Shown: positions 9,215-48,634, numbered from the stretch's first letter. The stretch is DNA of 64,000 nt from a virus (IMGVR_UViG_3300014203_000001:32001-96000), one strand, 5' to 3'. A program made the numbers and translations. Notes: generated by a model from the sequence alone, not told the origin.

Positions 9215-9655
9215 TTATTCAACTACAACGTGTAGCATTACCGCTTTAAGCTCATCATTATTAGAAAAGAGTATAAATTTCTTGTTTGCAATACCACCAG
9301 CTAGACAAATATTAACAGCTCTTAAATGCTTCATATCTCCTGTAGTTACTGAAAAGATTGAGTTGATAGAACGCTCAAAACTACCAAATGAAGGAGTAAA
9401 TAAAATTGTATTCGGAATTCGTATAAGTTTAATACCTTCTTCTCCATCTTTACAAATTTCACATTTACCAGTTTCAATATCATAGTACTCGCTTCCAATA
9501 TCAACATATCCGTTTATAAATATATCAGTAATACAAGTGCTAATGTTTATTTCTACATCATCAGAATTCCCAAATAATTCTTTAATAATATCTCTTGTTC
9601 CTTTTTCTGGTAGATGAATAAATACATCCTTTTCTCTCTTCTCCCCTAATACCAT
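9215..9655 (-). CDS. hypothetical protein
   Basis: Start MVLGEK at 9655 after AAAGGAGG. Confidence 0.6.
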   Translation of the reverse strand: MVLGEKREKDVFIHLPEKGTRDIIKELFGNSDDVEINISTCITDIFINGYVDIGSEYYDIETGKCEICKDGEEGIKLIRIPNTILFTPSFGSFERSINSIFSVTTGDMKHLRAVNICLAGGIANKKFILFSNNDELKAVMLHVVVE

Positions 9656-9713
9656 ATAAATAGCCTCCTTTGTAATCATTAAATAAATGTATGTGTTTGT
9701 ATAAAAACATATA

Positions 9714-9741
9714 AAGAGGTATAGCAATTGCTATACCTCTT
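9714..9741. terminator. perfect 28-bp palindrome
   Basis: AAGAGGTATAGCAATTGCTATACCTCTT. Confidence 0.7.
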
Positions 9742-10982: not shown

Positions 10983-12827
10983 TTATTGAGCGTTGTTAAC
11001 TGCACTTTTATGGGTAATCCCATTAGCTGTGTAATCGTTAGCAGCGTTAACTCCGATAGGATCAGGGTTAGCGATGTCTTCACGAAGACCAGTTGGGTTC
11101 ATGATTTGGATACGACCTTGAATAGGTTGGAATTGTAGGAATCTCCAACGTTCGAAGCAAGTAATACCAGGTAATTGATATTGCTCAGTATCACGAATCT
11201 CGTTAGAAATGTATAATTGATAATCAACAACTTTGTAGATTACACGTTGCGTATTACGTGGGCAAAGAATAATAATCAAGTTGTTGTTATTACGCATTTT
11301 CGAGCTTGAGATGAATTGATAGATACGTTTATCACTAGTCACAACAGTTTTCTTGAATTCAAGTTCTACCGGACCAATGTTGGAAGGAGTGCTATACGTA
11401 TAATCTTTAGGGGTAAGTTTACGGATAAGTTCAGGACGACCAAATACAGTAATAGTCATATTTTCATCGTTAAGAACTTGTAATAAATTAGTTACCTGAG
11501 TTTCTAAGTAATCCATGAAGGTTTCTTGTCTCCATGAGATATGAGAACCCATGTAAGATCCTTGTGGTGGAATGAAATCAAATGCACCACTAACTTTTTG
11601 AGTTTCAGCCAATCCTAAGAAGGATTTATCTAATTCATCATGAATCATATCATCTTTATAATGTAACAATGCTAAACGCATTTGAGACATAAGTTTAGTA
11701 ATTTGGTTTACACTGAACAATGCTTGAATATCTTTTACTTCTTCTGGAGATACAGTAGTAGTAATGTGTGGAGCTTCTGGAATTTCGAAGATATCCGTAC
11801 GTTGGCTCCATTTAGTTATGCAAGTTTTGAAAGCAGCAGAAGATACATCAGCTACGGCGTGCATTCTTAATGCTTTAACATCCGAAGTATTCAGTACGTT
11901 GAGCATGAATTTCTTGCTTTTCTTAACATAACCACCAATAATACCCTTAACTACTTTAGTATTACCAAGAGCATCAAGTTTAGCAACTACAGTGAAAGAA
12001 GCCATGATCGAACGATCAAATTCGCCATATGATGGACTAAAGAATAATTCAGCTGTATCGAACATAACAGGTTTAACTCCAGCTCCACCAGCAGCAACTA
12101 CTTCATATGCTTTAGTAGTAGTATTGTAGAAGGTCTCACCCACCGCAACATAGCTATCTACAAGAACGCCAGTAATAGCAGTTTTGATACTCAATGCGGC
12201 ATTAGTTGAATTGATACCCAACTCATCTTTAAGAATATCTAAGCTTTCGTTTTCAGGAAGAGTAATAACTACATCTTTTGTAGGTACGCTATTTTTAATA
12301 GCATCTTTAATTTTATACTGTTCTAAGAACATATCAATCTCGTTACCTTGTGTATCCACTAAAATACGAGTTTCCATTGATAATGTGAACTTAGGAGAAA
12401 CCGATACATCTTTCTGCATTGATTGATCAAACACTGCATTCGTCAACAGGTTTTTATGCATAGGGAAAGTAGTTGCGATCATAGGATTCGAATCACCAGT
12501 GTAACAGTTTTCACGTACACCAACTAAATCGTTTTTAAATAATTCACCAAGATCAGCTTCTAAAGCAGCTACAGCTTCTGGGTTGCCTGCATATCTAGGA
12601 TCTTCAGGATCGTAAGCCTCGCTAACAAACAATTTCTTCATAGCATCAACAGTACTATTCTTACTGAAGAACATATCTGGTTGACGATATACATCAATAC
12701 CCTCGTTAACTGCACTTCTAGCAATACTCAAAAAGCTTTCAGCTAATTTAGTCATTTCATTTTTTTCATATCCTCTTGCCTTAGCATTAGGATTTTGTCT
12801 TTCTCCAACAACTGGCATTGTATTCAC
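10983..12827 (-). CDS. probable major capsid protein precursor
   Basis: 614 aa; own late promoter and strong terminator; N-terminal region with LAES/VNE/VRE sites; downstream of acidic scaffold-like gene. Confidence 0.6.
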   Translation of the reverse strand: MNTMPVVGERQNPNAKARGYEKNEMTKLAESFLSIARSAVNEGIDVYRQPDMFFSKNSTVDAMKKLFVSEAYDPEDPRYAGNPEAVAALEADLGELFKNDLVGVRENCYTGDSNPMIATTFPMHKNLLTNAVFDQSMQKDVSVSPKFTLSMETRILVDTQGNEIDMFLEQYKIKDAIKNSVPTKDVVITLPENESLDILKDELGINSTNAALSIKTAITGVLVDSYVAVGETFYNTTTKAYEVVAAGGAGVKPVMFDTAELFFSPSYGEFDRSIMASFTVVAKLDALGNTKVVKGIIGGYVKKSKKFMLNVLNTSDVKALRMHAVADVSSAAFKTCITKWSQRTDIFEIPEAPHITTTVSPEEVKDIQALFSVNQITKLMSQMRLALLHYKDDMIHDELDKSFLGLAETQKVSGAFDFIPPQGSYMGSHISWRQETFMDYLETQVTNLLQVLNDENMTITVFGRPELIRKLTPKDYTYSTPSNIGPVELEFKKTVVTSDKRIYQFISSSKMRNNNNLIIILCPRNTQRVIYKVVDYQLYISNEIRDTEQYQLPGITCFERWRFLQFQPIQGRIQIMNPTGLREDIANPDPIGVNAANDYTANGITHKSAVNNAQ

Positions 12828-13949: not shown

Positions 13950-16202
13950 CTAATCTTCTTTAGCTTTTGCATCTGTAGATCTAACTGTCTTATCGTCCCA
14001 TTCAATCTTAATTTTATATTTCAATCTAGATTCTTGGGCTTCTAATTTCTTTTTAATAAGAAGAAGTTCTCTAACCCGTTTAAGATCTTTCTTATCTTCA
14101 GCTTGAGCAATATACTTATCTACCATTTGAAGTTCTACTTCTAATTCATTCAATACCAACTGTCGTTCTTTTGTTCTTATCTTAGAACTCATAGCAAATT
14201 TACCAAGAAGAATAATTACAGCCACGGCAGGATGTATTAACCAAGCAGCTCCAACCGTTACAACAGCCATTTTAATAACCTTAGATGCAGATGGAAGAAT
14301 ATCTCCTCTAATAACGGCTTCTCTATTCTCGGTAGTCATTGATTTTTCTACACTTCTAGATAAGCTATCACATGTAGCATCTACTGTTCTAGACATAATC
14401 TTTTCTTTATCTGAAAGATCTGATGCTATATTAGCTAGCTTTTGTGTTGCCATATGTAAACCACTAGTAATGCTTAATTCATTAATGGCTCTCACATATG
14501 AATTTATAACATGAGTAGATTCTTGTAATTCAATGATATCTGAGAATACATTGCTTCCGTCAATAGATTCTTTAATACCATCGATTTCGAGGGATTTAAG
14601 TTTGGTTAGATTTTCAGCATAGCAGTTTATCTTATTATAGTTCATTATATTCTTAGATGCTTCTCTATCGGCAAACTCTAATGCTTCAATAAGTTTATCT
14701 TTATCTAGCATATCAGGATGCTTCATTGCAAACCCAGTAATATAATCCACATTATCCAATTCTAGATTCGTAATATTATCAGTTGCAAATAGAATTCTTT
14801 CATTGGTAGCCTTATCCCATTCAATAGAATTTACAGCAGATTCTATAACTCTAATATCTATAGCAGAGTTGATAGTTTCTTCGTCAAAGTTCATATCAAA
14901 ATTAAACCCATCATCTTTACCAGGTCTATTATTATTTTCCCAGCTTTTCTTTTCATCATCACCTTGCATAGAATCAGAATGTGCTTCTAAAGCGTCTATG
15001 CTTTTATCCATTTGCTTTAGATATTCTTCTAATTTTTCTTTCTTCTTATGATCAGTACATTTCTCTATTTTCTTAGCAACAGATTCTCTATCCCTATACC
15101 ATACTCGTAGGACTTCTTTCATATACTTGCGTTCCATTACCATATTTATAGTTTTAGAAACTATAATAGCAAACAATCCAGCGAATACTCCTAGAGAAAA
15201 AGCCCCTACAACTACACAAAAATAAAATGCAACTGATAGTAAATTAGTGGTTCCTTCTGCTATATCTTTATCTTTGTTTACAACTAGTATATTTACCATT
15301 AGTTGTTTGAATAGCTCTGGAGATTTAGAAGGTAAAGTTTTAAACTTATCAATCAATTCTCTAGTTTTATCCTTCATAGCTTCTTGTAATATAAAATCAA
15401 TAGATGCATCTTCTGTTACTGGGACGGTGGATTCTTGAAGTTCAGTAAGATATTTAAAATCATCTTCTTTAAAGAATCTATTTTGCTTAGCAGTTTCAGA
15501 TAAAATATGTAATAGTTCTCTAGACGAATCTTGTGGATTCATACTATTAGAAAGAAAGTAATCTGTTACGGATTCTACTATATCTTTAGTATCGAATCTA
15601 ACATTGTTCTCACTAAAAGCGAATAAAGTTTCCTCTAGGGCTAGACTATATTTAGCATTAACTCCAACTTTATACGTATCAACAAAAGAACATAGTTCGT
15701 AGATAGTATCTTTAATACTATCACCATATGCATTTTCTCTTACATAGTTATCGATATTAAATCTTCTCGAAATAAGATCGTGATTCTTAATAGCTCTATC
15801 ACAGTGAACCGCTTCATTGATTCTATCTAGAATAGAACTTAGATATTTAATCTTACTCGGCTCCTCAGCTTCTTTAATTCTACACATAATACCTTCTCTG
15901 AGAAAGGATGGACTTTCTAGAGAAAAAATAATACTCTCGTTAATCCTATCAGTAATCGTCTTTAAATTATTCTCCGTTCCGTTCTCTGATACTATGTCGA
16001 ATAACTCTAAAACTTTTCTTACAGACATATCTGTATTTGCTGAATAACTTGTCCACTTCTCTACAGATTCTTTGATATTCTCAAAATTATAATTCTCCTT
16101 ACAAGATTGGAACAATGGATAGATAGTATCCCCTTTGAATGGTTTTGTACGATGATAGCGTTTACTCAAATCTACAGTGGAAATATGTTGCTTCATATAC
16201 AA
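13950..16202 (-). CDS. virion protein with hydrophobic segments (possible ejection protein)
   Basis: 750 aa; many xxE-S/A motifs; two hydrophobic stretches; late promoter at 16224-16235. Confidence 0.5.
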   Translation of the reverse strand: MYMKQHISTVDLSKRYHRTKPFKGDTIYPLFQSCKENYNFENIKESVEKWTSYSANTDMSVRKVLELFDIVSENGTENNLKTITDRINESIIFSLESPSFLREGIMCRIKEAEEPSKIKYLSSILDRINEAVHCDRAIKNHDLISRRFNIDNYVRENAYGDSIKDTIYELCSFVDTYKVGVNAKYSLALEETLFAFSENNVRFDTKDIVESVTDYFLSNSMNPQDSSRELLHILSETAKQNRFFKEDDFKYLTELQESTVPVTEDASIDFILQEAMKDKTRELIDKFKTLPSKSPELFKQLMVNILVVNKDKDIAEGTTNLLSVAFYFCVVVGAFSLGVFAGLFAIIVSKTINMVMERKYMKEVLRVWYRDRESVAKKIEKCTDHKKKEKLEEYLKQMDKSIDALEAHSDSMQGDDEKKSWENNNRPGKDDGFNFDMNFDEETINSAIDIRVIESAVNSIEWDKATNERILFATDNITNLELDNVDYITGFAMKHPDMLDKDKLIEALEFADREASKNIMNYNKINCYAENLTKLKSLEIDGIKESIDGSNVFSDIIELQESTHVINSYVRAINELSITSGLHMATQKLANIASDLSDKEKIMSRTVDATCDSLSRSVEKSMTTENREAVIRGDILPSASKVIKMAVVTVGAAWLIHPAVAVIILLGKFAMSSKIRTKERQLVLNELEVELQMVDKYIAQAEDKKDLKRVRELLLIKKKLEAQESRLKYKIKIEWDDKTVRSTDAKAKED

Positions 16203-22299: not shown

Positions 22300-22734
22300 T
22301 TATTCACTAAATGCTTCGTCCCATGCAGATTGACAACCATTGATATAGTTCTCTAGAGTATCACCAAAATATCCACCGTCTTTAAGAGCAGCAGCATACT
22401 CTTCTAGAGTAGTAGCTTTATCGATCCCATTCTCAATGTAGTATCCTAGATATTTTCCGAAATAGATAGCATAATCTTCGGGAGATTCAAATGCTTGATA
22501 GTTATCCCCTTCTGGGCTAGTCATATCTTCAGTAAGCCATGAAGGTTGATCTTTAAATTGTTTTAACCCACCAAAGTTATTAGCATTTTCGGCTAGCCAA
22601 CTAGCGAATCCACCAGTCTCATGATAGAATTGACAATACAAATACCGAGGGTCGATATTTGTTAATCCTTTTTCATCAGCAGCCGTTTGAGCTGCTAATT
22701 GTGCTAATGCCCAATATTTCTCATTTACATTCAT
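22300..22734 (-). CDS. glucosaminidase (GH73-like), candidate endolysin
   Basis: QFYHETG, NNFGGLK, LKDGGYF..YING; late promoter; similar to a domain in the tail protein at 63.2-63.65 kb. Confidence 0.75.
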   Translation of the reverse strand: MNVNEKYWALAQLAAQTAADEKGLTNIDPRYLYCQFYHETGGFASWLAENANNFGGLKQFKDQPSWLTEDMTSPEGDNYQAFESPEDYAIYFGKYLGYYIENGIDKATTLEEYAAALKDGGYFGDTLENYINGCQSAWDEAFSE

Positions 22735-25221: not shown

Positions 25222-25866
25222 TTACTTTATTGGTACTCGTTCGCATATAGGAATAGTCTTACTATTTTTAAATAACACTTCTTCTATAGGAAGACCAACA
25301 TTTAGTCTTTGAGTTATACTACTATGACTAATTCCTAATAGTCTTCCCCATTGAGACGCAGATAATTTCATACCATCATATTCTACCAATACAGTATTTC
25401 TTTTATTAATAGCATGTGATTCTGGATATACCCAGTTACAATTATCTGTGCAATAATCTCCATTTATATCCTTTCTTCCTAAAATCATTGTTTTATCTGG
25501 TCTAGGACCCATATCTTCCATAAAAGTAATAAATGATTCTCTCCATGAATCACTCGTAGCAATTCCTCTTTGCCCATAATATTGATATGAATCATCCTTT
25601 TCTGAATAGCACCTATCAATCATTTTACGCCATATTCCATATTCTCTTGGATATTCATTTGTCAATCCATTAGATGTCTTTTTTACACAGCTGCAGGATG
25701 TAGTCTGCTTTTGAGTTAGATTAAATCCAGATACGATTACAATTGTTTGTTTCTCGCAATTACATTTACACTTCCACATAGCCCTCCCAAATTTATTACT
25801 TCCTGCTCTTTCGATAACAGTTAATTTTCCAAATATAAGTCCAGTTAAGTCATTTCCTCTAGCCAT
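25222..25866 (-). CDS. free-standing HNH-family homing endonuclease-like protein
   Basis: DLTGLIFGKLTV, WKCKCNC, SCSC, YGIWRKMIDRC, YGQRGI, DMGPRP, GDYCTDNCNW. Confidence 0.8.
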   Translation of the reverse strand: MARGNDLTGLIFGKLTVIERAGSNKFGRAMWKCKCNCEKQTIVIVSGFNLTQKQTTSCSCVKKTSNGLTNEYPREYGIWRKMIDRCYSEKDDSYQYYGQRGIATSDSWRESFITFMEDMGPRPDKTMILGRKDINGDYCTDNCNWVYPESHAINKRNTVLVEYDGMKLSASQWGRLLGISHSSITQRLNVGLPIEEVLFKNSKTIPICERVPIK

Positions 25867-30198: not shown

Positions 30199-30210
30199 AA
30201 CATAGCAATA
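30199..30210 (+). promoter_or_regulatory. late promoter
   Basis: AACA TAGCAA TA before GAGGAGG RBS. Confidence 0.7.
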
Positions 30211-30231: not shown

Positions 30232-31452
30232 ATGTCTAAAAAATATAGCTGTTTATACTGTAGTGAAAAGCTTAGTAGAGAAGAGTTAGTTAGTCATATA
30301 GAAAAAGAACACGATGAAATGTTACCAGAGGGATTCTCTGCAAACCGTGTGGTATTTAATCTAGTAAATAAGAAAGCTCCCAATGAAGGTGGATGCTGTG
30401 TAGTATGTAAGAGGGAAACTCCCTTTAATGAGAATAGTGGTAAATATGATAGATTATGCGGCAGAAAGCAATGTTTAGATACATTGAGAAAGAAAGCCAG
30501 CGAAAATATGGTAAAGGTATATGGTAAGACTAGTTTATTAGAAGACCCAGATCATCAAATGAAGATGTTAGCGAATAGAAAAATATCAGGTAAGTATAAG
30601 TTTACAGATAATGGCTACCACGTTTATACGGGCAGTTATGAGAAGAAAGCTTTAGAATTTATAGACCAAGTATTAGGATTCAAGTCTACTGAAATTCTAT
30701 GCCCTGGACCTACTTTAGAGTATGAGTACGAAGGAAATACCAAAAAATGGATAACCGATATCTATATTATTCCTCTGAATCTTATCATAGAAGTAAAAGA
30801 TGGAGGAAGTTCACCTAATAACAGACCAATGGATTCATATAGAGCTAAACAAGTTGCTAAAGAAGAGCTGGTTACATCATTAGGGAAATTTAACTATTTA
30901 AGATTAACAGATAATGATTTCTCTCAATTACTTTACGTTATAGCTCAGCTTAAAATGGAAATGTTAGATGACACTGAGGATAATAGAAAAGTAGTTATTA
31001 ATATCAATGAAGAAGTAGAAGCTTTAAAAGAGGATTTTGATAGGAAGGTTATCGATTTTGTGTTTGGTAAAGAAAAAGAAAATAAAGTAGATATCGCTAA
31101 GGCTAGCAGAATACTAAAATCTACAATAAATTCTAATTCCAATCTATTTGTCGGAGCTAAAATATCTTATGAAATAAAAGGAAATAGATTATGTAATATA
31201 TCCTTTCCAGAAGATGAAAAAAGCCATGACAAATACAAAAAGGCTGTCCATAAATTTCTTATTATTATAAACGAAAAGGTTAAGAATGAAAAGTTTGAGT
31301 ATGATTGGAATGTATCGTGGGGAGATATTAATATTATTTGTAATAGTGGTAAGACTAAATTAGGAGAATCTTTCTCGAATTTTGTATTGAAAGAATCCAC
31401 TAATGAAAAACTAACTTCGACTATATATTATATAAATGAGGGAGATGATTAA
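30232..31452 (+). CDS. Zn-finger + PD-(D/E)XK nuclease with xxE-delimited C-terminal extension
   Basis: CLYC...HIEKEH, CVVC...C...C, WITDIY...IIEVKDG; INEE/LGES/LKES/INEG motifs. Confidence 0.65.
   Translation: MSKKYSCLYCSEKLSREELVSHIEKEHDEMLPEGFSANRVVFNLVNKKAPNEGGCCVVCKRETPFNENSGKYDRLCGRKQCLDTLRKKASENMVKVYGKTSLLEDPDHQMKMLANRKISGKYKFTDNGYHVYTGSYEKKALEFIDQVLGFKSTEILCPGPTLEYEYEGNTKKWITDIYIIPLNLIIEVKDGGSSPNNRPMDSYRAKQVAKEELVTSLGKFNYLRLTDNDFSQLLYVIAQLKMEMLDDTEDNRKVVININEEVEALKEDFDRKVIDFVFGKEKENKVDIAKASRILKSTINSNSNLFVGAKISYEIKGNRLCNISFPEDEKSHDKYKKAVHKFLIIINEKVKNEKFEYDWNVSWGDINIICNSGKTKLGESFSNFVLKESTNEKLTSTIYYINEGDD
31421..31440 (+). promoter_or_regulatory. early promoter inside 3' end of nuclease gene
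   Basis: CTATATATTATATAAATGAG. Confidence 0.7.
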
Positions 31453-31453
31453 T

Positions 31454-31894
31454 ATGAATACTAGGAAAATAAAATGTGACGAAAAGGTTTATTTTAAAGA
31501 TGAAGCTACAATGTTAGCACGCGTAAAAGTAGACGCGTTCGATGCTATGGATAGTAAAGAAAAACTAGAAGCTTTCTGTGATAAATATAAGGAGTATATA
31601 GATATATTAGAAGAAATGGTAACAGAAGAGCGAAAAGAACGCGAAGCCAAATATCAATCTAATCTAGAAGCCAGTATCGTCAAAGAAGAACCAGAAAAAG
31701 ATGATTGGTTGGATATGTCAGTAATTGAAGCTATGACAGAAGATGAATATCAGGAATACTTAGAAATGAAAATAGGTAATCCTAGACCAGATACAGTTAG
31801 AAGCATAATTCAAGAAACGGTTAATGGATATATATTTTTAACAGGTAAACCATTATTAGGTGAAACTAATATAGATGAGGAGGATGAACAATGA
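31454..31894 (+). CDS. acidic protein, paralog A (candidate antitoxin)
   Basis: CDEKVYF...TVNGYIFLTGKPLLGET; start 31454 after GAGGGAG. Confidence 0.6.
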   Translation: MNTRKIKCDEKVYFKDEATMLARVKVDAFDAMDSKEKLEAFCDKYKEYIDILEEMVTEERKEREAKYQSNLEASIVKEEPEKDDWLDMSVIEAMTEDEYQEYLEMKIGNPRPDTVRSIIQETVNGYIFLTGKPLLGETNIDEEDEQ

Positions 31895-32334
31895 ATATAA
31901 AAATAAGAGGAATTGAAACTGAAATTGAATGTGATGAAAAAGTTTACTTTGCAGATGAGGAAATTATGTATCATCAAGTACTGAAAGATTCTCAAGAAGC
32001 TATAACTAATGACGATCTAGAAAAATTAGAAGCATTTTATACAAAATATAAAGCGTATGCTGATGCAATCGAAGTTATAATACTCCAAGATCAAAAAGAG
32101 TTTGAAGAGAATGGTCCTTCTCTAGAAATTGAAAATAAAATAGATATGGAAAATATGACTCATAAAGAAGTTATCCAACACTGTAAAGAGCAATTAGAAG
32201 AGATACCAACTGCAGGTAAGATATATAGAACTATTAGATCTACAGTTAATACATATATGTGTTTTACAGGTCGTCCAATGTTAGGGGAAACACAGGAAGA
32301 ATTTGATGAATGGGGTGAATATAATGAAGATTGA
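31891..32334 (+). CDS. acidic protein, paralog B (candidate antitoxin)
   Basis: CDEKVYF...TVNTYMCFTGRPMLGET. Confidence 0.6.
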   Translation: MNIKIRGIETEIECDEKVYFADEEIMYHQVLKDSQEAITNDDLEKLEAFYTKYKAYADAIEVIILQDQKEFEENGPSLEIENKIDMENMTHKEVIQHCKEQLEEIPTAGKIYRTIRSTVNTYMCFTGRPMLGETQEEFDEWGEYNED

Positions 32335-33862
32335 GATAGGCGATGTATGGTATTTAAAATTTCCATATGATGAGAATGATGGAAGATTTAAGGACAGACC
32401 TGGAGTGGTTGTAGATGAGTTACCAAATGACATATATGTTGTAGTAAAATGTACATCTAAACCTAAAAAAAGAACACCTTTTGATTACACGCTTAAAGAT
32501 CCAGAAATTGCTAATTTAGCTAAAAGTGGTAACATTAGGTGCGATAACGATTTAAAAATAAAAATACGAGATTTTAGAAGAAAAAAAGGAGTTATATCTG
32601 ATATTGATATGCCTGAAATAACCAGACTATATAAGGAAGCGATAGCTCAGGAAGGTCATCAATCTATGGTGCTTGAAGAGTTCTTTAGTAACGATGATGA
32701 TACTTATCCAATTAACGAAGATGACCATATTGTTCCTCTCAACAATATGGTCCAGGAACAAGTTGCTAAACCTGGATATAGCTTCTTGGAAATATTAGAC
32801 GAATCTGTAAACCTACAGAAGGTTTCAGAAAAGGATAAGAAGGATATAATGAATATTTATAATTCTTTATCCGAACAAGAAAAGAAATCTATGGGAGGGA
32901 GATTTGCGAATTCCCCTAATATTGCTTTTAGCAAAGTATATAGAGAAGGATCAGTTCCAATGTCATTTGTTCAAGGATATGATTTTGGTAATGATGAAAT
33001 TGTAGTGGAAGTAGCATCAGCTACATATGCTAGAGGAGAAGGATATGCTTCTAAAGGAGTATATGAATTGACATCTTTTGCTAAAAGCAATGGGTATAAT
33101 AGAATAGTTTATCTAGTAAAAGAAGATAATGAAGCATCTATCACTTTGGCTGAAAGTGCTGGGTTTGAATGTGATGGTAAAGAGCGTAGTCGTTTTATCT
33201 ATGCAATGCAACTAACCAAACCAGTAAAAGAAAATATGGCTATGGGTGGAATGAATCCTATACCATCACCAACTAGAGCAATATGTATTACTCAGTATGG
33301 ATATAGAAATACTAGTTGTAAAGATGAAGTAGAAGGATATGCTATTCATAATGATATCATTACAGATAAGATTCTTACTGTAGACGAGTATGGTGTACTT
33401 AGAATTAGAGAGAATTCTTTTTTAGAAGGAAGAAATATTGCGATATATAAGTACGTAAAAGAAGATCTTAAAGGATATCATAAAATCTTGAAATCTGTAA
33501 ACAAGCAAGTTTATAGAGAATTCATATATGAAACTCTTACTGGTAAACGACTTCTATGCGACGATCAGATTATATGCGATGAATGTTTTACAGAGATATC
33601 TTTCGCTAAGATAGTCGCAGAACAGACATCTGCAATTCAAACTATAATAGATCAGTATAAGGAAATTATAGGCGAGACCGTAATTAGACTTCCTTTATTA
33701 ATCAAAGAAGATATCAATGCAGCGTCTAAATTACTAAAAGGAAATCGTACTATTAAAGTATTTGAAAATTTAAACGGATACTTTGCGGAGAATGCGTTAA
33801 CTAGACAACGAACTGGATACTATAAGAAGGTAAAAGATATTCAAATAGAGGTGATAATGTAG
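32324..33862 (+). CDS. PemK/MazF-like RNase + GNAT + C-terminal domain fusion
   Basis: GDVWYLKFPY...KDRPGVVV...CTSK (PemK); YARGEGYAS...VKEDNEASITLAESAGF (GNAT); xxE-rich linkers. Confidence 0.75.
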   Translation: MKIEIGDVWYLKFPYDENDGRFKDRPGVVVDELPNDIYVVVKCTSKPKKRTPFDYTLKDPEIANLAKSGNIRCDNDLKIKIRDFRRKKGVISDIDMPEITRLYKEAIAQEGHQSMVLEEFFSNDDDTYPINEDDHIVPLNNMVQEQVAKPGYSFLEILDESVNLQKVSEKDKKDIMNIYNSLSEQEKKSMGGRFANSPNIAFSKVYREGSVPMSFVQGYDFGNDEIVVEVASATYARGEGYASKGVYELTSFAKSNGYNRIVYLVKEDNEASITLAESAGFECDGKERSRFIYAMQLTKPVKENMAMGGMNPIPSPTRAICITQYGYRNTSCKDEVEGYAIHNDIITDKILTVDEYGVLRIRENSFLEGRNIAIYKYVKEDLKGYHKILKSVNKQVYREFIYETLTGKRLLCDDQIICDECFTEISFAKIVAEQTSAIQTIIDQYKEIIGETVIRLPLLIKEDINAASKLLKGNRTIKVFENLNGYFAENALTRQRTGYYKKVKDIQIEVIM

Positions 33863-36540
33863 TGAAGAATATAGAGAATGATGTTATAACATTTGATAAT
33901 CTGGATGATAGAGAAACAAAAGACTGGCGAGCAATTCGAGGTATTATTCTTCTATACAGTGGATATAAGACAGAAGGAGAATTACGAAGAGATTTCGAGA
34001 ACTTTATAGGAATGCCATTAGGTGACAGAAGAGAAAGTGATTGGAAATCTATAGATCTGTATGGTAGTAACAACACAGATAGATATAATAAGATGCTATC
34101 AGTGTTCTTAAAGAACGATATAGAAAATGATGATTTATATTCTAATTACTATGCTCCTGTGAGAGAATCTGCAGATGGGAATATTAGAATAGGATTCGTT
34201 GGCTATAGTGATTCAGTATTTGATGTGAACAAAGCTATAACTATTATTGAAAAAATATTTGTAAAAATATCTAAAATGTATGATAAAAATAAAGTAGAGA
34301 TTGTATCTGGATATACTAATTTAGGTATACCTAAATTAGTATATGAAAAAGCCAATGAATTAGGTTTTAAAACTGTTGGCATTGCTTGTAAAAAAGCTAA
34401 TGAATATGATGTATTTCCTTGCGATAAAGTAATTATTAAAGGAGAAGAATGGGGAGACGAATCTGAGACTTTCCTTAATTATATAGATGCGATATATAAA
34501 ATAGGAGGAGGTAAACAATCTGAGAGTGAATTTAAAAGCATGAAAAAAATGTCTAAACCAGCTATAGAATATAGATTAGATCGTATAGGAAAGCCAGTAA
34601 AAGAATCTGCAATGGAGAGAGCAGAAGAATGGAATAATAATAGTCTTAATAAGATCATTACTAAAGCTACTTCTTTAAAAGATCTAGAAACCCAATGGGA
34701 AAGATATCAAGCTATTCCTATTCATGATAGAAATAAGCTAGATACCACATCTACTGAGATATTTGGTATTAATAATACTGATCATTATAATTCTCAGAAG
34801 AGAGATTATGTAAAGAAAGATATAGAGAATCCAAAACCAGATGTATTATATACTATTACTAAAGAAGAAGCACTGTTAGAGTATGCTTCTAATACAGATC
34901 CTATTACTTCAGCTTTAACTTGTATTAGATTACAAGAATCTGCATATCCTAACTCTAAGATATTATGCGAGAAAGCAGAGAAAGAGTTAGATGATAAAAT
35001 AAGTATGGATAATATGATGGCAATGTCTATCACTCCATATTTTACCCCATCTCAAATGGAGAAGTTAGGATTATCTGTATTAGATGTAGGCGGTATGTAT
35101 AGTAATGAACCAGACAATGTTATTATAGGAGATATATCTACTAAAGAATGGTTTCTAGAGTACAAGAACCGATTTAATGGATATGACGATACATCCTATA
35201 CTAGTCAATCCGCATGGGTAGAATCTATGAAAAAACTATACTCTGATTATGAGGATATAAAGGAATCTGGAGACATAAATAAGATAAATAGTAGAAAGCA
35301 ATCTATCTTAGATTTAGGATGGAATCCAGAAATAGATTTTAATGAGGAAACTAGAATATTAGCAACCAATCGTATAAATTCCATACTCAACGAAGAATAC
35401 TCTAGATATAGAATTATAGATATAGAACAAAGTGTTTCTCTTATGAATGAAAACTTTGTATATAACGAATCAGAAAATGGTCCTAAGATCAAACCCATCT
35501 TTGTAGTATTCTTTAATACGAAGAACTTATTCAATAAGATCGCTAGGCTTGTAGATAAATCTGTATATAGCCACGTATCTATATCATTTAATCCTTCTTT
35601 AAAAACTCTATATAGTTTTGATGCTAAGCATGGTGGATTCCATACTGAGTATCTAAAAGACTTTATAGAAGAAGGAAATGTAAAAGCTATACAAGTATTT
35701 TGTACTTTTGTAGATGAAGAAAGATATCATAAGATGAAGAATAGAATTTCTAATTTTCATAAGGATAAAGAACAACGAGGATATTCATTCCTTAATCTAA
35801 TAACTATTCCGCTAAAGATAAACTATATAAACCAATCTAAAATGGTTTGTTCTCAGTTTGTAGATAGTATGCTTAAATTAGCAGATCTGGATACTACTCA
35901 TATGGTATCTAGTATAATATCTCCTGGTAATCTGAATAGACATATTAAGAAGTTTAAAGGGGATATGTATAAGATATTTACAGGCGATCCTAAGAATTAC
36001 AATACTAATAAAGTAGGAGAGTTTATAAATAATCTAACCTCTGTTATACAAACTCATACAGAGTCTTCTGTATTAAATTCTTTTTTATCAGTAAATCCTA
36101 TTAGAGAAGAATTTGGTATTCAGTTTACTGATGATGGGGATTTGTTAATCTCTAAAGGAAAAGATATAGACTTCGAAGGTGAATATTCTAGATGTCATAT
36201 GGCATTAATGGAATATGATAAAGCTAAGAATACAGAAGCTATGAAGTACTGTATATGTAAACTATGGTATCTTAATATTATACTAGAAGAAAGAATCAAT
36301 GAGGAGAATTCTAGTAAAGATAAAGATAGAGAAAAACTAAAATCTTATCATAAAGCTAGAGCTAAGATATTGAATGATATTAAGACCTATATGAAAAGAG
36401 TACAGAGATTAGATAAAGATTTTGATATAATTAAAGAATATAACGATAGCCCATTTAATGATAAGAATATCAGAATAAGAAGATCTACTATACTATATGC
36501 TATAGAGCTAGCTAAAAGACTAATAGGAATAAAGAGGTGA
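33862..36540 (+). CDS. large multidomain virion-like protein with SLOG and permuted papain-like (YiiX/NlpC) domains
   Basis: IGFVGYS...IVSGYTNLG...IGGGKQSESE (SLOG); YSHVSISF...CSQFV (permuted papain); PVRESA/PVKESA/PIREE linkers. Confidence 0.7.
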   Translation: MKNIENDVITFDNLDDRETKDWRAIRGIILLYSGYKTEGELRRDFENFIGMPLGDRRESDWKSIDLYGSNNTDRYNKMLSVFLKNDIENDDLYSNYYAPVRESADGNIRIGFVGYSDSVFDVNKAITIIEKIFVKISKMYDKNKVEIVSGYTNLGIPKLVYEKANELGFKTVGIACKKANEYDVFPCDKVIIKGEEWGDESETFLNYIDAIYKIGGGKQSESEFKSMKKMSKPAIEYRLDRIGKPVKESAMERAEEWNNNSLNKIITKATSLKDLETQWERYQAIPIHDRNKLDTTSTEIFGINNTDHYNSQKRDYVKKDIENPKPDVLYTITKEEALLEYASNTDPITSALTCIRLQESAYPNSKILCEKAEKELDDKISMDNMMAMSITPYFTPSQMEKLGLSVLDVGGMYSNEPDNVIIGDISTKEWFLEYKNRFNGYDDTSYTSQSAWVESMKKLYSDYEDIKESGDINKINSRKQSILDLGWNPEIDFNEETRILATNRINSILNEEYSRYRIIDIEQSVSLMNENFVYNESENGPKIKPIFVVFFNTKNLFNKIARLVDKSVYSHVSISFNPSLKTLYSFDAKHGGFHTEYLKDFIEEGNVKAIQVFCTFVDEERYHKMKNRISNFHKDKEQRGYSFLNLITIPLKINYINQSKMVCSQFVDSMLKLADLDTTHMVSSIISPGNLNRHIKKFKGDMYKIFTGDPKNYNTNKVGEFINNLTSVIQTHTESSVLNSFLSVNPIREEFGIQFTDDGDLLISKGKDIDFEGEYSRCHMALMEYDKAKNTEAMKYCICKLWYLNIILEERINEENSSKDKDREKLKSYHKARAKILNDIKTYMKRVQRLDKDFDIIKEYNDSPFNDKNIRIRRSTILYAIELAKRLIGIKR

Positions 36541-36626: not shown

Positions 36627-36660
36627 ATATAAGAGGTATCTATTATGATACCTCTTATAT
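36627..36660. terminator. hairpin
   Basis: atataagaggtatc-tattat-gatacctcttatat. Confidence 0.7.
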
Positions 36661-45030: not shown

Positions 45031-46305
45031 TTATTCTACCTCCGATACATAGTTTGGAATTAATGAAAGATCTATAGATTCGTTATTCAAAGTAGATTTC
45101 AATGCATGATGTAATAGTCTATCTTTACGTTCTTTCATCGCAGGGCTATCATGCGGATCATGAACGTATTGCTTATCTAGATGATGATTCTTATCATGTT
45201 TGTCATCCGTAGGAACTGCATATGGATTATAATTATGACTAATCTCCTCATCTACTACAGCTTCATTCTTAGCAAGGATCTTCTTAAATGCTCCATATAG
45301 AATGCTCTTATCCTGCCCGTAGCAATCTTTTAACGCATCTAATTTAGCTGAAAAAGCCATCAGATGCATATTAGCAATAGTAGTGATCTCCTGAGATTTA
45401 GCTTTCATAAATAGATCATATAGAGCAATCTTATCAGAAGATGTATCACCATCTATAATATCTTCAATAGATACTACTTCTTTACCATCTTGGGTAATCT
45501 TGTTTACGCTATCTAATTTCTTCTGAATCTCATTATATTTCTTTTCTATATTATCAGAATGGCGTTGAGTAGAAGTTTTCATCTTATCATAGTTAGTAAA
45601 GAATGATAATGCCTCTGTAACGATAGCATTTGTTACACTAATCTTACTAGTAGATGAATCACCACTACGATATATCTTAAACAGCTCATCTTTGAAATCG
45701 GTTTCACTAATATTGCTTTTAGCTTTGATACAAGCTTTTCTAATATCATCCATATAAGAATTACCATTCTTTGTATCTAGGAAAGAATCGTATGCTGTTT
45801 TCATAGCATCTTTCCCTTTAGCTTTCCCACTAGCATCTTTAAAATCTGCAATAGAATCGTCTAACTTTTGTAAAGGATTGATAGATGGTACATCTTCTTC
45901 GAATTTGAATGTGTACCCTCTAATATCAAACTCATGAATAGAAGAGAACTTAGCGAGATCCCCTTTGTGTTGTTCAATATACTTATCTCTCATAAACAAT
46001 GAGTTAATTCTAACCCAGAACTTAGCTAGTAGATTCTTAAGAAATTTGATAATGGATTTGATGAACTTCTTAATCCCATCAAAGAAATCAGAGAATGATT
46101 CTCTAATAAGTATAGCATCTCCGCTAGATTCATTAATTCCTTTATATAGAGCGGCATTTAAATAAGTAAACTCTCTATTCTTATTAGACAGAAAGTCTAG
46201 GGTTTCAATAAAATAAGAATCATCATTATATGAATCAGTACTCTCTATAGTAACAATAGAAGTTTGTTCATCTAACAATGATAATGCGCTAAATAGTTTA
46301 GACAT
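45031..46305 (-). CDS. internal head protein paralog 3
   Basis: RESFSDFFDGIKKFIKSIIKFLKNLLAKF. Confidence 0.6.
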   Translation of the reverse strand: MSKLFSALSLLDEQTSIVTIESTDSYNDDSYFIETLDFLSNKNREFTYLNAALYKGINESSGDAILIRESFSDFFDGIKKFIKSIIKFLKNLLAKFWVRINSLFMRDKYIEQHKGDLAKFSSIHEFDIRGYTFKFEEDVPSINPLQKLDDSIADFKDASGKAKGKDAMKTAYDSFLDTKNGNSYMDDIRKACIKAKSNISETDFKDELFKIYRSGDSSTSKISVTNAIVTEALSFFTNYDKMKTSTQRHSDNIEKKYNEIQKKLDSVNKITQDGKEVVSIEDIIDGDTSSDKIALYDLFMKAKSQEITTIANMHLMAFSAKLDALKDCYGQDKSILYGAFKKILAKNEAVVDEEISHNYNPYAVPTDDKHDKNHHLDKQYVHDPHDSPAMKERKDRLLHHALKSTLNNESIDLSLIPNYVSEVE

Positions 46306-46330
46306 TTAATTTCCTCCTTTTATAATATAA

Positions 46331-46356
46331 CAGGGAATACCAATTGGTATTCCCTG
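46331..46356. terminator. perfect 26-bp palindrome
   Basis: CAGGGAATACCAATTGGTATTCCCTG. Confidence 0.7.
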
Positions 46357-46374
46357 CAATGTAGTTTTATTTAA

Positions 46375-47442
46375 TTATCGGAATTCTACAGAACCGAAGA
46401 TATCTTCAGAACTTCCACCGTATGACTGCCAGCTAGCAGATTCTTTAACAGAAGCACGGATTACTTGTGAAGCGAATCCTTTTGCTTGTGAAATTTCGTT
46501 AGAAATAGCAGTTACTTGAGCACCAAGATATGCTTGCTTTGCGGCTAAACAACCTTTGAATGCACTAACGATAACAGGATATGCAGCTGTTCTCTTACCA
46601 GCATCGCCATCTTTTGGATCTTTAGTTTGAGCAGTAATGCTAGTATTTTGGGCTTTTTCAGTTAACTTGATAATTTCATTAATGTCTTTCTCAAGTTGTT
46701 TATAGCTATCAGATGCATCTTTTGCTGCTTTATCGTTTCCTAATACTTTAGCCAAATATGCAAAATCTACACCATCAACTTCAGATTTTGTACTTTGCCC
46801 ATCTCTAAAATGTTCAAAAAGGGCTTTATTATATTCAGATGCGCTGTAAGATCCGCTAGTTTCTCCAAGACATGCAGAACGAAATCCTTCAATCTTATCA
46901 TCTAGTTTTTCTCTACCATCTATAATTTTTTGAGCATCAGTTGCGCTAAAATCTAACGATTGAGCAGAGACACTAAACATAGCTGCCACTGTATTCGCGA
47001 TGCCTTCCTTATTCATACTGTTTTTGCTATCAAGATGGGTAAATTTATAACCGTGGAATTTCACTTTATCTTTATCAATCTTACTGAACTTCTCAGCCAA
47101 TTCTTTCTTGTATTTATCAAAGAATGATTTACCACCTTTGAATTGAGCATCTACGCGGCTCATGAAGCTATTGAAGATACCTTTCAATTTAGCAAGAATA
47201 CTCATGAAGAATTTCTTCACTTTTTCCCAGAAAGATCTAATAGCACCTTCGTTTAATGCACATTCACCTGATTCGCGAAGTGCTTTGTTTTCATGTAGAC
47301 CAATCGTAGTCATAAGAGCATTGAAATTACTTTCAGACTCTGCTACTACAGCAAGTACTGCTTCGTGGTAGTTACTAATATAGCAAGGTACAGCTTGAAC
47401 TTCAACTGATGTACCTAATGTGCTTTCACCAAAAAAACTCAT
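46375..47442 (-). CDS. internal head protein paralog 2
   Basis: MSFFGE; LNEGAIRSFWEKVKKFF. Confidence 0.65.
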   Translation of the reverse strand: MSFFGESTLGTSVEVQAVPCYISNYHEAVLAVVAESESNFNALMTTIGLHENKALRESGECALNEGAIRSFWEKVKKFFMSILAKLKGIFNSFMSRVDAQFKGGKSFFDKYKKELAEKFSKIDKDKVKFHGYKFTHLDSKNSMNKEGIANTVAAMFSVSAQSLDFSATDAQKIIDGREKLDDKIEGFRSACLGETSGSYSASEYNKALFEHFRDGQSTKSEVDGVDFAYLAKVLGNDKAAKDASDSYKQLEKDINEIIKLTEKAQNTSITAQTKDPKDGDAGKRTAAYPVIVSAFKGCLAAKQAYLGAQVTAISNEISQAKGFASQVIRASVKESASWQSYGGSSEDIFGSVEFR

Positions 47443-47457
47443 TATCTTTTCCTCCTC

Positions 47458-48570
47458 TTAATATACTGCTTCTAGAGCAGATAATACTTCATATTCAGCA
47501 GCTTCTTGTTCTACTTCAATCAATGAAGTATCTTCATGTTTCTTAGGATTGAATGCTACAATAGCAGCAGCAATTCTACGAGACTGAGCCACAGCAAATT
47601 TAATTTCAGTTAAAACAGCACTATTAGCAACACCAAGAGCTTCTTGCATAGCCTGAGCCTGCTTTTGTAAACGCGCAGCCAATTTCTGATGATTTTCAGC
47701 TTTACCACTAAATTTACCACCATCTGTTTTATCAGTATCTTTACCACTGAATTTATTACTGTAACCACCATGGGTTACATCTTTTGTACTGTCTACAGCA
47801 TAATCCGTAGCTTTACCTGCAAATTTTTCAATTTGTTTAAGGTAATTATTAAGACCTTTTTCTTGGTCTTCACCTAATTTCTTAAGTGTAGAAACTGGAT
47901 CTTTTTTGCCAGAAATATATTGAACATATTCGGCAATATTACTAGAGCTGACTTCGTGAGTAGCTTCTTCTGAATCGAAGCATTCATCATGGAAATCTTT
48001 ACGGAAAGATCCTTTACTAGCATTATTAACTTTAGGCACTACGATATCACTCAAATATTCATCCACTAAATCACTCTGAGATTTGTCGTCTGATAAATTT
48101 CCGTCTGGGCTGGCACCGTCTACATTTACTTTAATATTAGCAAAGCCAGATGTAGGTTTTGAATATTTCACTTTCAAACCATCAAGATCTTTTCCCGAGA
48201 AGATTTCTTTCTTATATTTATCAAAGAAAGCTCTACCGTCTTTACCCATCCAAGCTTCAAATTTAGCAATGAAGCCTTTAAAGATACCTTTAATTTTAGC
48301 GATAAGTTTTCTAACAAATGCTTTAACTTTTTCCCAGAAGCTAGATAAAGCACCTTCTTGCATTGCACTAACCTCTGATTCGCTAGCACCTTCTTGAACC
48401 ATTCTATGTTCTTGACGGTCAGCCATTAGAGATGCGGAAAACATATCCATATCATTTTGGAAACCTTCTACCATAAGCATTTGAGCACCAATTGTGCCGC
48501 TGTATCCTTCAGCAGCTTCTACACAAATATTGCCAATGCTGCCTATTTCGTTTTCACCGAAAAAACTCAT
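47458..48570 (-). CDS. internal head protein paralog 1
   Basis: Start MSFFGE at 48570; MQEGALSSFWEKVKAFV; late promoter at 48635-48646. Confidence 0.65.
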   Translation of the reverse strand: MSFFGENEIGSIGNICVEAAEGYSGTIGAQMLMVEGFQNDMDMFSASLMADRQEHRMVQEGASESEVSAMQEGALSSFWEKVKAFVRKLIAKIKGIFKGFIAKFEAWMGKDGRAFFDKYKKEIFSGKDLDGLKVKYSKPTSGFANIKVNVDGASPDGNLSDDKSQSDLVDEYLSDIVVPKVNNASKGSFRKDFHDECFDSEEATHEVSSSNIAEYVQYISGKKDPVSTLKKLGEDQEKGLNNYLKQIEKFAGKATDYAVDSTKDVTHGGYSNKFSGKDTDKTDGGKFSGKAENHQKLAARLQKQAQAMQEALGVANSAVLTEIKFAVAQSRRIAAAIVAFNPKKHEDTSLIEVEQEAAEYEVLSALEAVY

Positions 48571-48589
48571 TGTATATTCCTCCTTAATA
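48565..48589. repeat. 25-bp direct repeat copy 1 (RBS + start)
   Basis: actcattgtatattcctccttaata identical to 49008-49032. Confidence 0.85.
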
Positions 48590-48634
48590 AAATTCATAAT
48601 ATTATTATTTATGGAGAATTAACCTCCATAGATT

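Follow-up and report, generated by a model that had tools for sequence, protein, structure and literature searches.

Exchangeable enzyme modules on conserved carrier proteins of an uncultured AR9-like jumbo phage: candidates for capsid-delivered cargo

Comparative analysis of a five-gene locus in an uncultured jumbo phage revealed unrelated enzyme modules fused to two conserved carrier proteins. The locus occupies positions 30,232 to 36,540 of a stretch of 64,000 nucleotides (nt) of viral DNA (IMGVR_UViG_3300014203_000001:32001-96000), the whole of which is hereafter called the window. We hold the modular architecture, variable cargo on conserved carriers, to be close to certain, and alignments indicate that in the closer relatives the modules are gained and lost at [IVLM]-x-E-[SAN] joints. 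Since these joints match the cut sites expected of a head protease, the cargo probably enters the capsid, is cleaved into its parts and travels with the DNA on delivery.

In the mechanism that we propose, two translationally coupled carriers, found in a large clade of uncultured jumbo phages resembling AR9 and the Fusobacterium phages, bear unrelated enzymes at joints made of hydrophobic-x-Glu followed by Ser, Ala or Asn. The anchor carrier ends in a conserved domain of 210 amino acids (aa), and the scaffold carrier combines a helical domain at its N-terminus with a permuted papain-like core and a C-terminal domain that is conserved. The predicted modules are a nuclease, a MazF RNase, a GNAT and a SLOG domain here, and transglutaminase-like, P-loop kinase, NUDIX, HD, SET and phosphoesterase domains in relatives. 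The carriers would bring the fusions into the prohead, an S77 protease of the T4 gp21 type would cut after the Glu of exposed joints during maturation, as it would cut the capsid protein and itself, and the freed enzymes would leave the head together with the DNA, to act at time zero. The MazF module would be bound and silenced by two acidic paralogs, expressed from an early promoter that lies within the nuclease gene. We infer packaging, cleavage, ejection and the target of each enzyme from the sequence, and we give the full chain, from packaged carriers through cutting by the head protease to ejected enzymes, an even chance of being right.

Conserved carriers and variable cargo

An earlier note on this DNA had described three ORFs (open reading frames) with effector domains set between head-protease-like sites; ORF calling gives five, all on the + strand (Table 1), two of which define the carriers. 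The same note had proposed to align orthologues in search of a conserved scaffold with variable domains at the E motifs. Such a scaffold was found, and the invariant domain architecture that it had named as the contrary outcome was not seen.

The 892-aa scaffold protein has 24 word-indexed homologues, and a profile of its C-terminal 150 residues retrieved 731 clusters (50% identity), nearly all of them from uncultured phages. Members of this C-terminal-domain family range from 124 to 2121 aa, with the domain C-terminal in every match listed. In the window the SLOG domain is an insert between PVRESA and PVKESA, at a place where aligned relatives have a single PVKES; in one relative (P0007) a transglutaminase-like insert follows KILES, and in two others (P0023 and P0024) GNAT and zinc-finger inserts are flanked by INES, VNEA and VNES. 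Pfam scans of 44 long family members recovered GNAT (7), DUF6582 (4) and calcineurin-like phosphoesterase/Metallophos (3) domains, and the same members also carry P-loop kinases/AAA ATPases, SET, HD, DUF5661 and transglutaminase-like domains.

The second carrier family, that of the 519-aa ORF, is defined by its 210-aa C-terminal anchor and carries six different N-terminal cargos. What precedes the anchor differs between relatives: MazF and GNAT in the window and in P0033; a nuclease and GNAT in P0034; a nuclease, an unknown module and another GNAT in P0027 and P0032; 540 aa of unassigned sequence in P0028; none in L016, a 218-aa protein beginning MNTNES-M; and a nuclease, a kinase, at least two transglutaminase-like domains and a NUDIX domain in the 1802-aa protein of L017. 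This last contig and a second one from IMG/VR (L017, 1255-6663, and L018, 1837-6663) encode near-identical polyproteins of 1802 and 1608 aa, which differ by one P-loop kinase cassette of ~190 aa lying between MLQE and IDE (each ending at its Glu) and missing from L018. Judged by this alignment, a single module has been cleanly gained or lost in nature between the two. The nuclease stands alone in P0029, where it ends right after INIHEE, and is fused through an ININEE-type joint to other modules and the anchor in P0027, P0032, P0034 and L017. Modules also move between ORFs, as in a further locus (L005), which has the acidic module joined to the nuclease protein's C-terminal module in altered order.

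The Pfam scans that were run gave no family for the parts that define the carriers (the anchor, the SDWKS N-domain and the C-terminal domain). Among cultured phages, megablast of the locus and tblastn of the 519-aa ORF returned nothing, tblastn of the 892-aa ORF found a match only through the SLOG insert, and residues 375-892 of the scaffold matched Fusobacterium phage peptidases only. In JD-Fnp1 and JD-Fnp4 this free-standing homologue is gp18. Neither the anchor profile (A2) nor the C-terminal-domain profile (A3) had a match in Listeria LPJP1, Bacillus Goe21 and BpSp, Staphylococcus S6 or Fusobacterium JD-Fnp4, and Fusobacterium phage gp17 is unrelated to the anchor profile. A scan of IMG/VR with the whole 892-aa protein gave no confirmed locus.

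The motifs had also been likened to those of head-protein paralogs, by which the earlier note meant three adjacent paralogous ORFs of 424, 355 and 379 aa (window 45031-48597, - strand), one of which matches the PHROG annotation 'virion structural protein'. The carriers are not paralogs of these; what is conserved in them is the C-terminal anchor and the scaffold domains.

The glutamate joints

The positions previously given for PVKEN, PVRESA, PVKESA and PIREE were all exact, as were those of ININEE, ILDES, YNES and HTES (Table 1). The strict form P[VIM][KRH]E[SAEN] occurs nine times in the 245.7-kb genome, four of these in the anchor and scaffold ORFs. The form derived from the capsid protein, [IVLM]xE[SAN][ASTVCM], was compared with shuffled sequence in all 262 ORFs of the genome. 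Its excess ranked first in a 750-aa protein encoded beside the capsid gene (8 observed, 1.05 expected), second in the anchor ORF (4 and 0.57), third in the prohead protease (3 and 0.29) and fifth in the scaffold ORF (3 and 0.84). The 750-aa protein with this largest excess (window 13950-16202, - strand), which lies beside the capsid gene cluster and has no PHROG or tblastn match, may be a scaffold or the main internal head protein.

In the alignment of the anchor family the joint has an invariant Glu and Met within a linker that otherwise varies, and both residues are retained even in the cargo-free 218-aa protein, which has a leader of six residues. In the scaffold family all of 44 sequences keep E749 ahead of the C-terminal domain; most of 129 sequences have [IVL]-x-E-[AVT]-K-E-F-P at this place (before KEFPVQF), often with a second x-E-S slightly upstream. 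Of 87 copies of the SDWKS N-domain, 59 have [IVLMA]xE[SANG] in the next 75 aa, and the GNAT-B module has an upstream site of its own at a fixed distance (ILDES/V, PIQED/V or ALEES/V, then ..VS; here and below a slash marks the joint).

In the full-length AlphaFold2 (AF2) model of the scaffold protein, PVRES, PVKES and PIREE overlap stretches in which the predicted local distance difference test (pLDDT) falls below 50 (86-104, 174-248 and 749-755), and LQES, YNES and HTES lie in loops between secondary-structure elements. A crude test of the edges of all alignment inserts placed 7 of 18 edges at most 10 residues from a motif (background 0.17, p = 0.02), the misses being all in the most divergent members or in doubtful inserts.

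The head protease and the major capsid protein

The earlier note had connected the joints to head proteases on the example of T4 gp21 and phiKZ gp175. This connection is now stronger: an S77 protease is encoded by the phage, and the motif stands where the propeptide of the capsid protein meets its core, and also near both ends of the protease itself. The gene for the prohead protease (Peptidase_S77, PF03420, T4 gp21-type; 46.6 bits for a cut-off of 27) lies just left of the window, on the minus strand at about G000:C1:30809-31654 with the match at 31127-31573, and the family was matched in four of five related genomes, above the cut-off in three. Its product has ICE/S at residues 8-11, and ISE/N, VTE/S and LAE/S after the catalytic domain; T4 gp21 has LIE-9 near its N-terminus and undergoes C-terminal processing (PMC9026906).

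In the major capsid protein, E103 is invariant among 22 homologues within [IVLM]-x-E-[SAN]-[AS], between a variable N-terminal part of ~100 aa and the conserved PLGAFNP core, which is the predicted position for cleavage during capsid maturation. For comparison, phiKZ gp120 is cleaved at Glu163/Asn164 (PMC11297242). A free-standing partial copy of the capsid protein is also present, a 170-aa ORF (window 9215-9727, - strand) with 33% identity to capsid residues 184-327.

Organization of the locus

The anchor and scaffold genes overlap by one base (start/stop TAGTG) and are neighbours with a stop/start overlap in every locus examined. The true start of the anchor carrier is probably the ATG at 32324, because the database protein has 512 aa.

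The domains proposed earlier fared unequally. The PemK/MazF domain (PF02452, residues 13-108, 28.2 bits for a cut-off of 23.1; phrog_1936, E 4.8e-19) and the GNAT domain (residues 213-289, above Pfam cut-offs) were both recovered. For the PD-(D/E)XK nuclease, the assignment as endonuclease is supported by a match to phrog_15137 'endonuclease' (E 1.2e-41, residues 5-237) with a D...EVK signature (ITDIY 174, EVKDGG 187), and the PD-(D/E)XK fold is only plausible. The SLOG insert taken alone falls just short of the Pfam cut-offs, with 24.3 bits for a cut-off of 25.4 (LSDAT_prok), and its relative gp345 of Bacillus phage G, to which it is 53% identical, passes (SLOG cluster4, LDcluster4; 27.4 for a cut-off of 26.3); the AF2 model is poor over the SLOG part of the scaffold protein. 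The PDB was searched by sequence for the SLOG insert, the anchor, the C-terminal domain and the nuclease without a usable match, and ESM Atlas neighbours of the C-terminal domain and the anchor were uninformative.

Table 1. Features of the cargo locus and the major capsid protein gene (window coordinates)
Feature	Position	Strand	Remarks
Late-type promoter motif AACA-N6-TA	30199..30210	+	33 nt upstream of ATG 30232
ORF 1	30232..31452	+	406 aa; zinc-finger and nuclease (residues 5-237), ININEE joint, C-terminal module of ~150 aa
ININEE joint	30997-31014	+	in ORF 1
Early-type promoter motif TATATATTATATA	31422..31434	+	perfect match inside 3' end of ORF 1; codes IYYINEGDD
Acidic paralog 1	31436..31894	+	152 aa; likely start ATG 31454; candidate MazF antidote
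Acidic paralog 2	31891..32334	+	147 aa; candidate MazF antidote
Anchor-carrier ORF	32303-33862	+	519 aa as called; 512 aa from ATG 32324
MazF	32339-32626	+	in anchor carrier
PINED	32708	+	in anchor carrier
ILDES	32792	+	in anchor carrier
GNAT	32939-33169	+	in anchor carrier
PVKEN/M	33221-33235	+	in anchor carrier
Anchor	33236-33859	+	in anchor carrier
Scaffold-carrier ORF	33862..36540	+	892 aa
N-domain		+	in scaffold, N-terminal half
PVRESA	34156	+	in scaffold, N-terminal half
SLOG insert	34174-34593	+	in scaffold, N-terminal half
PVKESA	34594	+	in scaffold, N-terminal half
N-domain repeat		+	in scaffold, N-terminal half
LQESA	34930	+	in scaffold, N-terminal half
Helical middle		+	in scaffold
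Permuted papain-like core	~35407-36045	+	His 35572, Cys 35848
YNES	35461	+	in scaffold
HTES	36055	+	in scaffold
PIREE	36097	+	in scaffold, C-terminal half
C-terminal domain	36112-36537	+	in scaffold, C-terminal half
Terminator-like hairpin	36627..36660	+	14-bp stem; first + strand terminator-like site after 30232; closes operon
Major capsid protein	10983..12827	-	phrog_20655; predicted maturation site V-R-E103/N-C

Transcription signals and candidate MazF antidotes

The locus had been described as a late operon. A late-type promoter motif does stand upstream of it, but the description is incomplete, as an early-type promoter lies inside the nuclease ORF. Genome-wide, [AG]ACA-N6-TA is most frequent at 30-39 nt ahead of start codons; a copy stands upstream of the prohead protease gene too. 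The late-type motif was found 33-36 nt upstream of the first cargo gene in 9 of 9 related loci (10 of 10 with the window) despite their diverged flanks, and it equals the experimentally defined late consensus of phage AR9, AACA-(6N)-TA/G (PMC5312081). Another candidate for a late promoter, the k-mer GAGCAATAA, was rejected, being the leader that follows early promoters.

The early consensus of AR9 is AAATATATATTAT-(6N)-G (PMC5312081). The AR9-type early motif of this genome, TATATATTATATA, occurs 20 times in the window for 3.7 expected. In L005 it lies in frame at 495-507, directly before the acidic module. Across the window locus (31422-31449) and L005 the embedded promoter is read as the peptide IYYI(N/K)EGDD; late transcripts of L005 would give a nuclease-acidic fusion, and early ones the acidic module alone. 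Loci that lack MazF have no early motif in their cargo genes. The exact 13-mer is also present in Listeria phage LPJP1 (L004) and in Fusobacterium phage JD-Fnp4 (L011), in the latter with one copy just past the stop of the cysteine peptidase gene. From its presence in these cultured relatives, the promoter of the virion RNA polymerase seems conserved across the clade. Since the early promoter is internal and no terminator-like site occurs before 36627, the acidic paralogs, and probably all downstream genes, would be expressed early as well; AR9 genes with both promoter types show continuous expression (PMC5312081).

The two acidic paralogs are 37.5% identical to each other, and Pfam scans gave neither a family nor MazE similarity for them. 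They were found only in MazF-carrying loci (the window and L005), both of which also carry the SLOG insert. A model of the complex of paralog 2 with a dimer of the MazF domain scored 0.80, the best of three controls reaching 0.41; the mark set for such models is reached by 51 of 78 solved complexes and by 2 of 108 mismatched pairs. At least 58% of contacts are common to the runs, and the partner pLDDT is no lower than 71. On the strength of this model the acidic paralogs, as candidate antidotes, probably bind and silence the MazF module. An early promoter inside the nuclease gene, driving two acidic paralogs predicted to bind MazF, is new here.

Weighing the proposed mechanism

Several observations weigh against the proposed packaging and processing. 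The phage is known only from a landfill metagenome; homologues of either carrier were not found in phages with known virion proteomes. The flanking genes include no recognisable structural genes by PHROG or tblastn, and since tblastn with three neighbouring or head-region proteins (766, 534 and 750 aa) gave no matches, the gene context yields no structural annotation. The cleavage site of the capsid protein is itself only predicted, and the MazF-GNAT-anchor and scaffold genes, which by their promoters are probably also transcribed early, could act unpackaged. The motif is short, and two of its four matches in the anchor ORF (LAESA 282 and IRENS 368) lie within folded domains; the conserved Glu that precedes the C-terminal domain directly adjoins the fold and may have a structural role; and the most distant members (P0021 and P0026) have inserts without a flanking motif.

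Part of this would suit intracellular polyvalent effectors, made both early and late and never packaged, whose carriers serve localisation, complex assembly or similar. Such effectors would be consistent with the internal AR9-type early promoter, the lack of a terminator-like site before the hairpin and the continuous expression of dual-promoter genes in AR9, with neighbouring genes devoid of structural annotation, and with acidic proteins encoded upstream of MazF, which is the ordinary layout of an intracellular toxin-antitoxin pair. However, the MazF-less relatives have the late-type motif only, with no early motif in their cargo genes. Effectors confined to the cell would also leave unexplained why the motif matches the predicted capsid maturation site and the protease ends, and why a cargo-free anchor bears a six-residue Glu-Ser leader. 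We regard this alternative as unlikely.

The proteins might instead work as intact multi-domain enzymes, the Glu-Ser motifs reflecting the acidic composition of flexible linkers and domain ends. The degeneracy of the motif, its occurrence inside folded domains (LAESA, IRENS), its absence at insert edges in distant relatives and the possibility that I-x-E-A-K-E-F-P is the first strand of the C-terminal domain all speak for this; but the Glu is invariant inside otherwise variable linkers, the motif is duplicated on either side of inserted cassettes, and its genome-wide excess is concentrated in the protease, the capsid-adjacent protein and the anchor and scaffold ORFs, which makes a lack of cleavage improbable.

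Finally, the joints might be cut by the permuted papain-like domain of the scaffold itself, in cis and in trans on the anchor protein. The earlier note had recognised a permuted papain peptidase here, and the match of residues 542-701 to phrog_1128 and the order of His and Cys agree with it, the structural matches being weak. His571 precedes Cys663, and both are almost invariant in 44 relatives. The AF2 model of residues 375-745 (pLDDT 78) has as its three best structural matches in a wide comparison with the PDB 3kw0, YiiX (2if6) and TseH (6v98), all permuted NlpC/P60 proteins; these matches are mutually consistent though weak (Z 4.8, 4.7 and 4.6; root-mean-square deviation 4.4-5.1 over 118-133 residues). 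Foldseek gave the papain-like model a probability of 0.41-0.47 and, for the middle and papain-like parts, no match at E <= 0.001. Fold matches to enzymes of the cysteine peptidase, NlpC/P60 type, the constant adjacency and overlap of the two carrier genes, and the cutting of polyvalent proteins by their own peptidase domain (a zincin) as proposed by others (PMC5512222) are all in keeping with self-processing. The earlier interpretation is only partly supported: modularity, joints and the link to a head protease stand, and the embedded papain-like domain rivals the head protease as processor. Self-processing is nevertheless at least as improbable as a lack of cleavage, as head proteases of the T4 gp21 type are documented to cut, as a rule, after Glu with a hydrophobic residue at P3, as the motif is also present in the capsid protein and the S77 protease, which a papain-like domain has no known reason to cut, as the weakly matched enzymes are amidases or cell-wall hydrolases and not polyprotein proteases, and as the homologue in Fusobacterium phages, a stand-alone protein of 290 aa, has nothing to process in cis.

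Phage lineage and other genes

The source record is a single-contig virus of 245,713 bp with direct terminal repeats, in which the window is G000:C1:32001-96000, and its G+C content is ~32%. The only sequencing run listed for the phage is a landfill metagenome (DNA), with no RNA run listed. Its RNA polymerase beta' fragment shares 35% identity with Listeria phage LPJP1 and 30-34% with Staphylococcus, Bacillus (Takahashivirus) and Fusobacterium jumbo phages, phiKZ-like phages being more distant, and relatives of its capsid protein number in the hundreds on metagenomic contigs of 220-340 kb. These comparisons place it among the uncultured jumbo phages whose RNA polymerases are of AR9-like lineage. 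Adjoining the beta' fragment gene, an HNH endonuclease (phrog_374, E 6e-55; window 25222-25866, - strand) may be a homing element. Among GTDB species genomes the C-terminal domain of the carrier gave a single match, on a 212.7-kb contig binned in a metagenome-assembled genome of Bacilli (L019, CAADXH010000018.1); this contig is probably a mis-binned jumbo phage, and its binning is a weak hint at a Firmicute host. At the right edge of the window a 4093-aa ORF (61334-64000, - strand) extends to ~73615, and a 144-aa ORF (22300-22734) shares 36% identity with its residues 3322-3442.

Comparison with known systems

In T4, internal proteins and Alt carry capsid-targeting propeptides that are removed by gp21, and the recruitment of diverse proteins into capsids by a targeting element has already been stated (PMC9026906). 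The present locus is similar to T4 IPI, IPII, IPIII and Alt in the presence of a gp21-type (S77) protease, in its hydrophobic-x-Glu joints and in the predicted carriage in the head and ejection of enzymes or anti-defence proteins. However, T4 cargo consists of single proteins with an N-terminal leader of ~10 residues, whereas here a chain can hold several enzymes and reach 1802 aa, and its conserved parts are large C-terminal or internal carrier domains, with no sequence homology to T4 proteins seen. As for a short N-terminal targeting sequence of the T4 kind, the cargo-free anchor starts with MNTNES-M and no leader is shared by the fused forms; capsid targeting may fall to the carrier domains.

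The phages phiKZ and SPN3US are, like this one, jumbo phages with multisubunit RNA polymerases. Many of their head-internal proteins are cut after Glu (by gp175 and gp245, respectively), with Ser favoured at P1' and a capsid-binding part split from a released part, and the joints described here are similar by sequence. Thus gp175 of phiKZ splits gp93 and gp162 into a part that binds the capsid and one that belongs to the inner body (PMC11297242), and SPN3US gp245 cuts after A-x-E with Ser preferred at P1' (PMC10052503). The differences are that their motif is S/A/G-x-E or A-x-E instead of [IVLM]-x-E, that their proteins are mostly non-enzymatic and lose N-terminal propeptides whereas enzymes are found here, and that the present carriers have no homologue in cultured phages except the stand-alone peptidase of Fusobacterium phages.

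Polyvalent proteins, including DdrB/DarB of P1, were predicted to be delivered with the DNA and processed (Iyer, Burroughs, Anand, de Souza and Aravind 2017; PMC5512222). They likewise join unrelated domains of the conflict type (GNAT, nuclease, peptidase) in one polypeptide, with architectures varying between relatives. An embedded zincin-like metallopeptidase was proposed to cut them, whereas the joints of the present locus match the head protease; Pfam scans of the window proteins, of 44 family members and of the 1802-aa polyprotein found no metallopeptidase family, the embedded domain being papain-like instead. With MazEF systems the locus shares a PemK/MazF domain and small acidic proteins encoded just upstream under their own promoter, for which toxin binding is predicted by modelling. 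Unlike in MazEF, the toxin is fused to GNAT and the anchor, the putative antidotes (147-152 aa) have no similarity to MazE, and in L005 the antidote module is fused in frame into the nuclease protein. The locus is thus a variant of T4-type head cargo and of polyvalent proteins, made distinct by its AR9-like lineage, its dedicated C-terminal or internal carriers and its coupled antidote module.

Conclusions

This study describes a large carrier family (731 clusters), close to phage-only and with no Pfam match in the scans run, together with an unusual toxin-antitoxin arrangement in which MazF and its candidate antidotes are placed under an early promoter embedded in a coding sequence. As a tentative generalisation, less probable than the delivery mechanism itself, hydrophobic-x-Glu could be a universal plug-in joint: any cassette set between two sites on a carrier would automatically be loaded, released and injected, giving this whole clade, with its 731 clusters, a rapidly evolvable arsenal active from the moment of infection, in which toxic cassettes would come with their own early-promoter antidote and the promoter could be written into coding sequence. 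If the proposed delivery is true, a new enzyme would need no new targeting signal and would only have to be spliced into a standing carrier between protease sites. Host shut-off and anti-defence in the first seconds of infection would then be an arena of cassette swapping readable directly from metagenomes. The joints would also provide a rule for predicting virion cargo in uncultured phages, and the carriers a natural template for loading foreign proteins into capsids.

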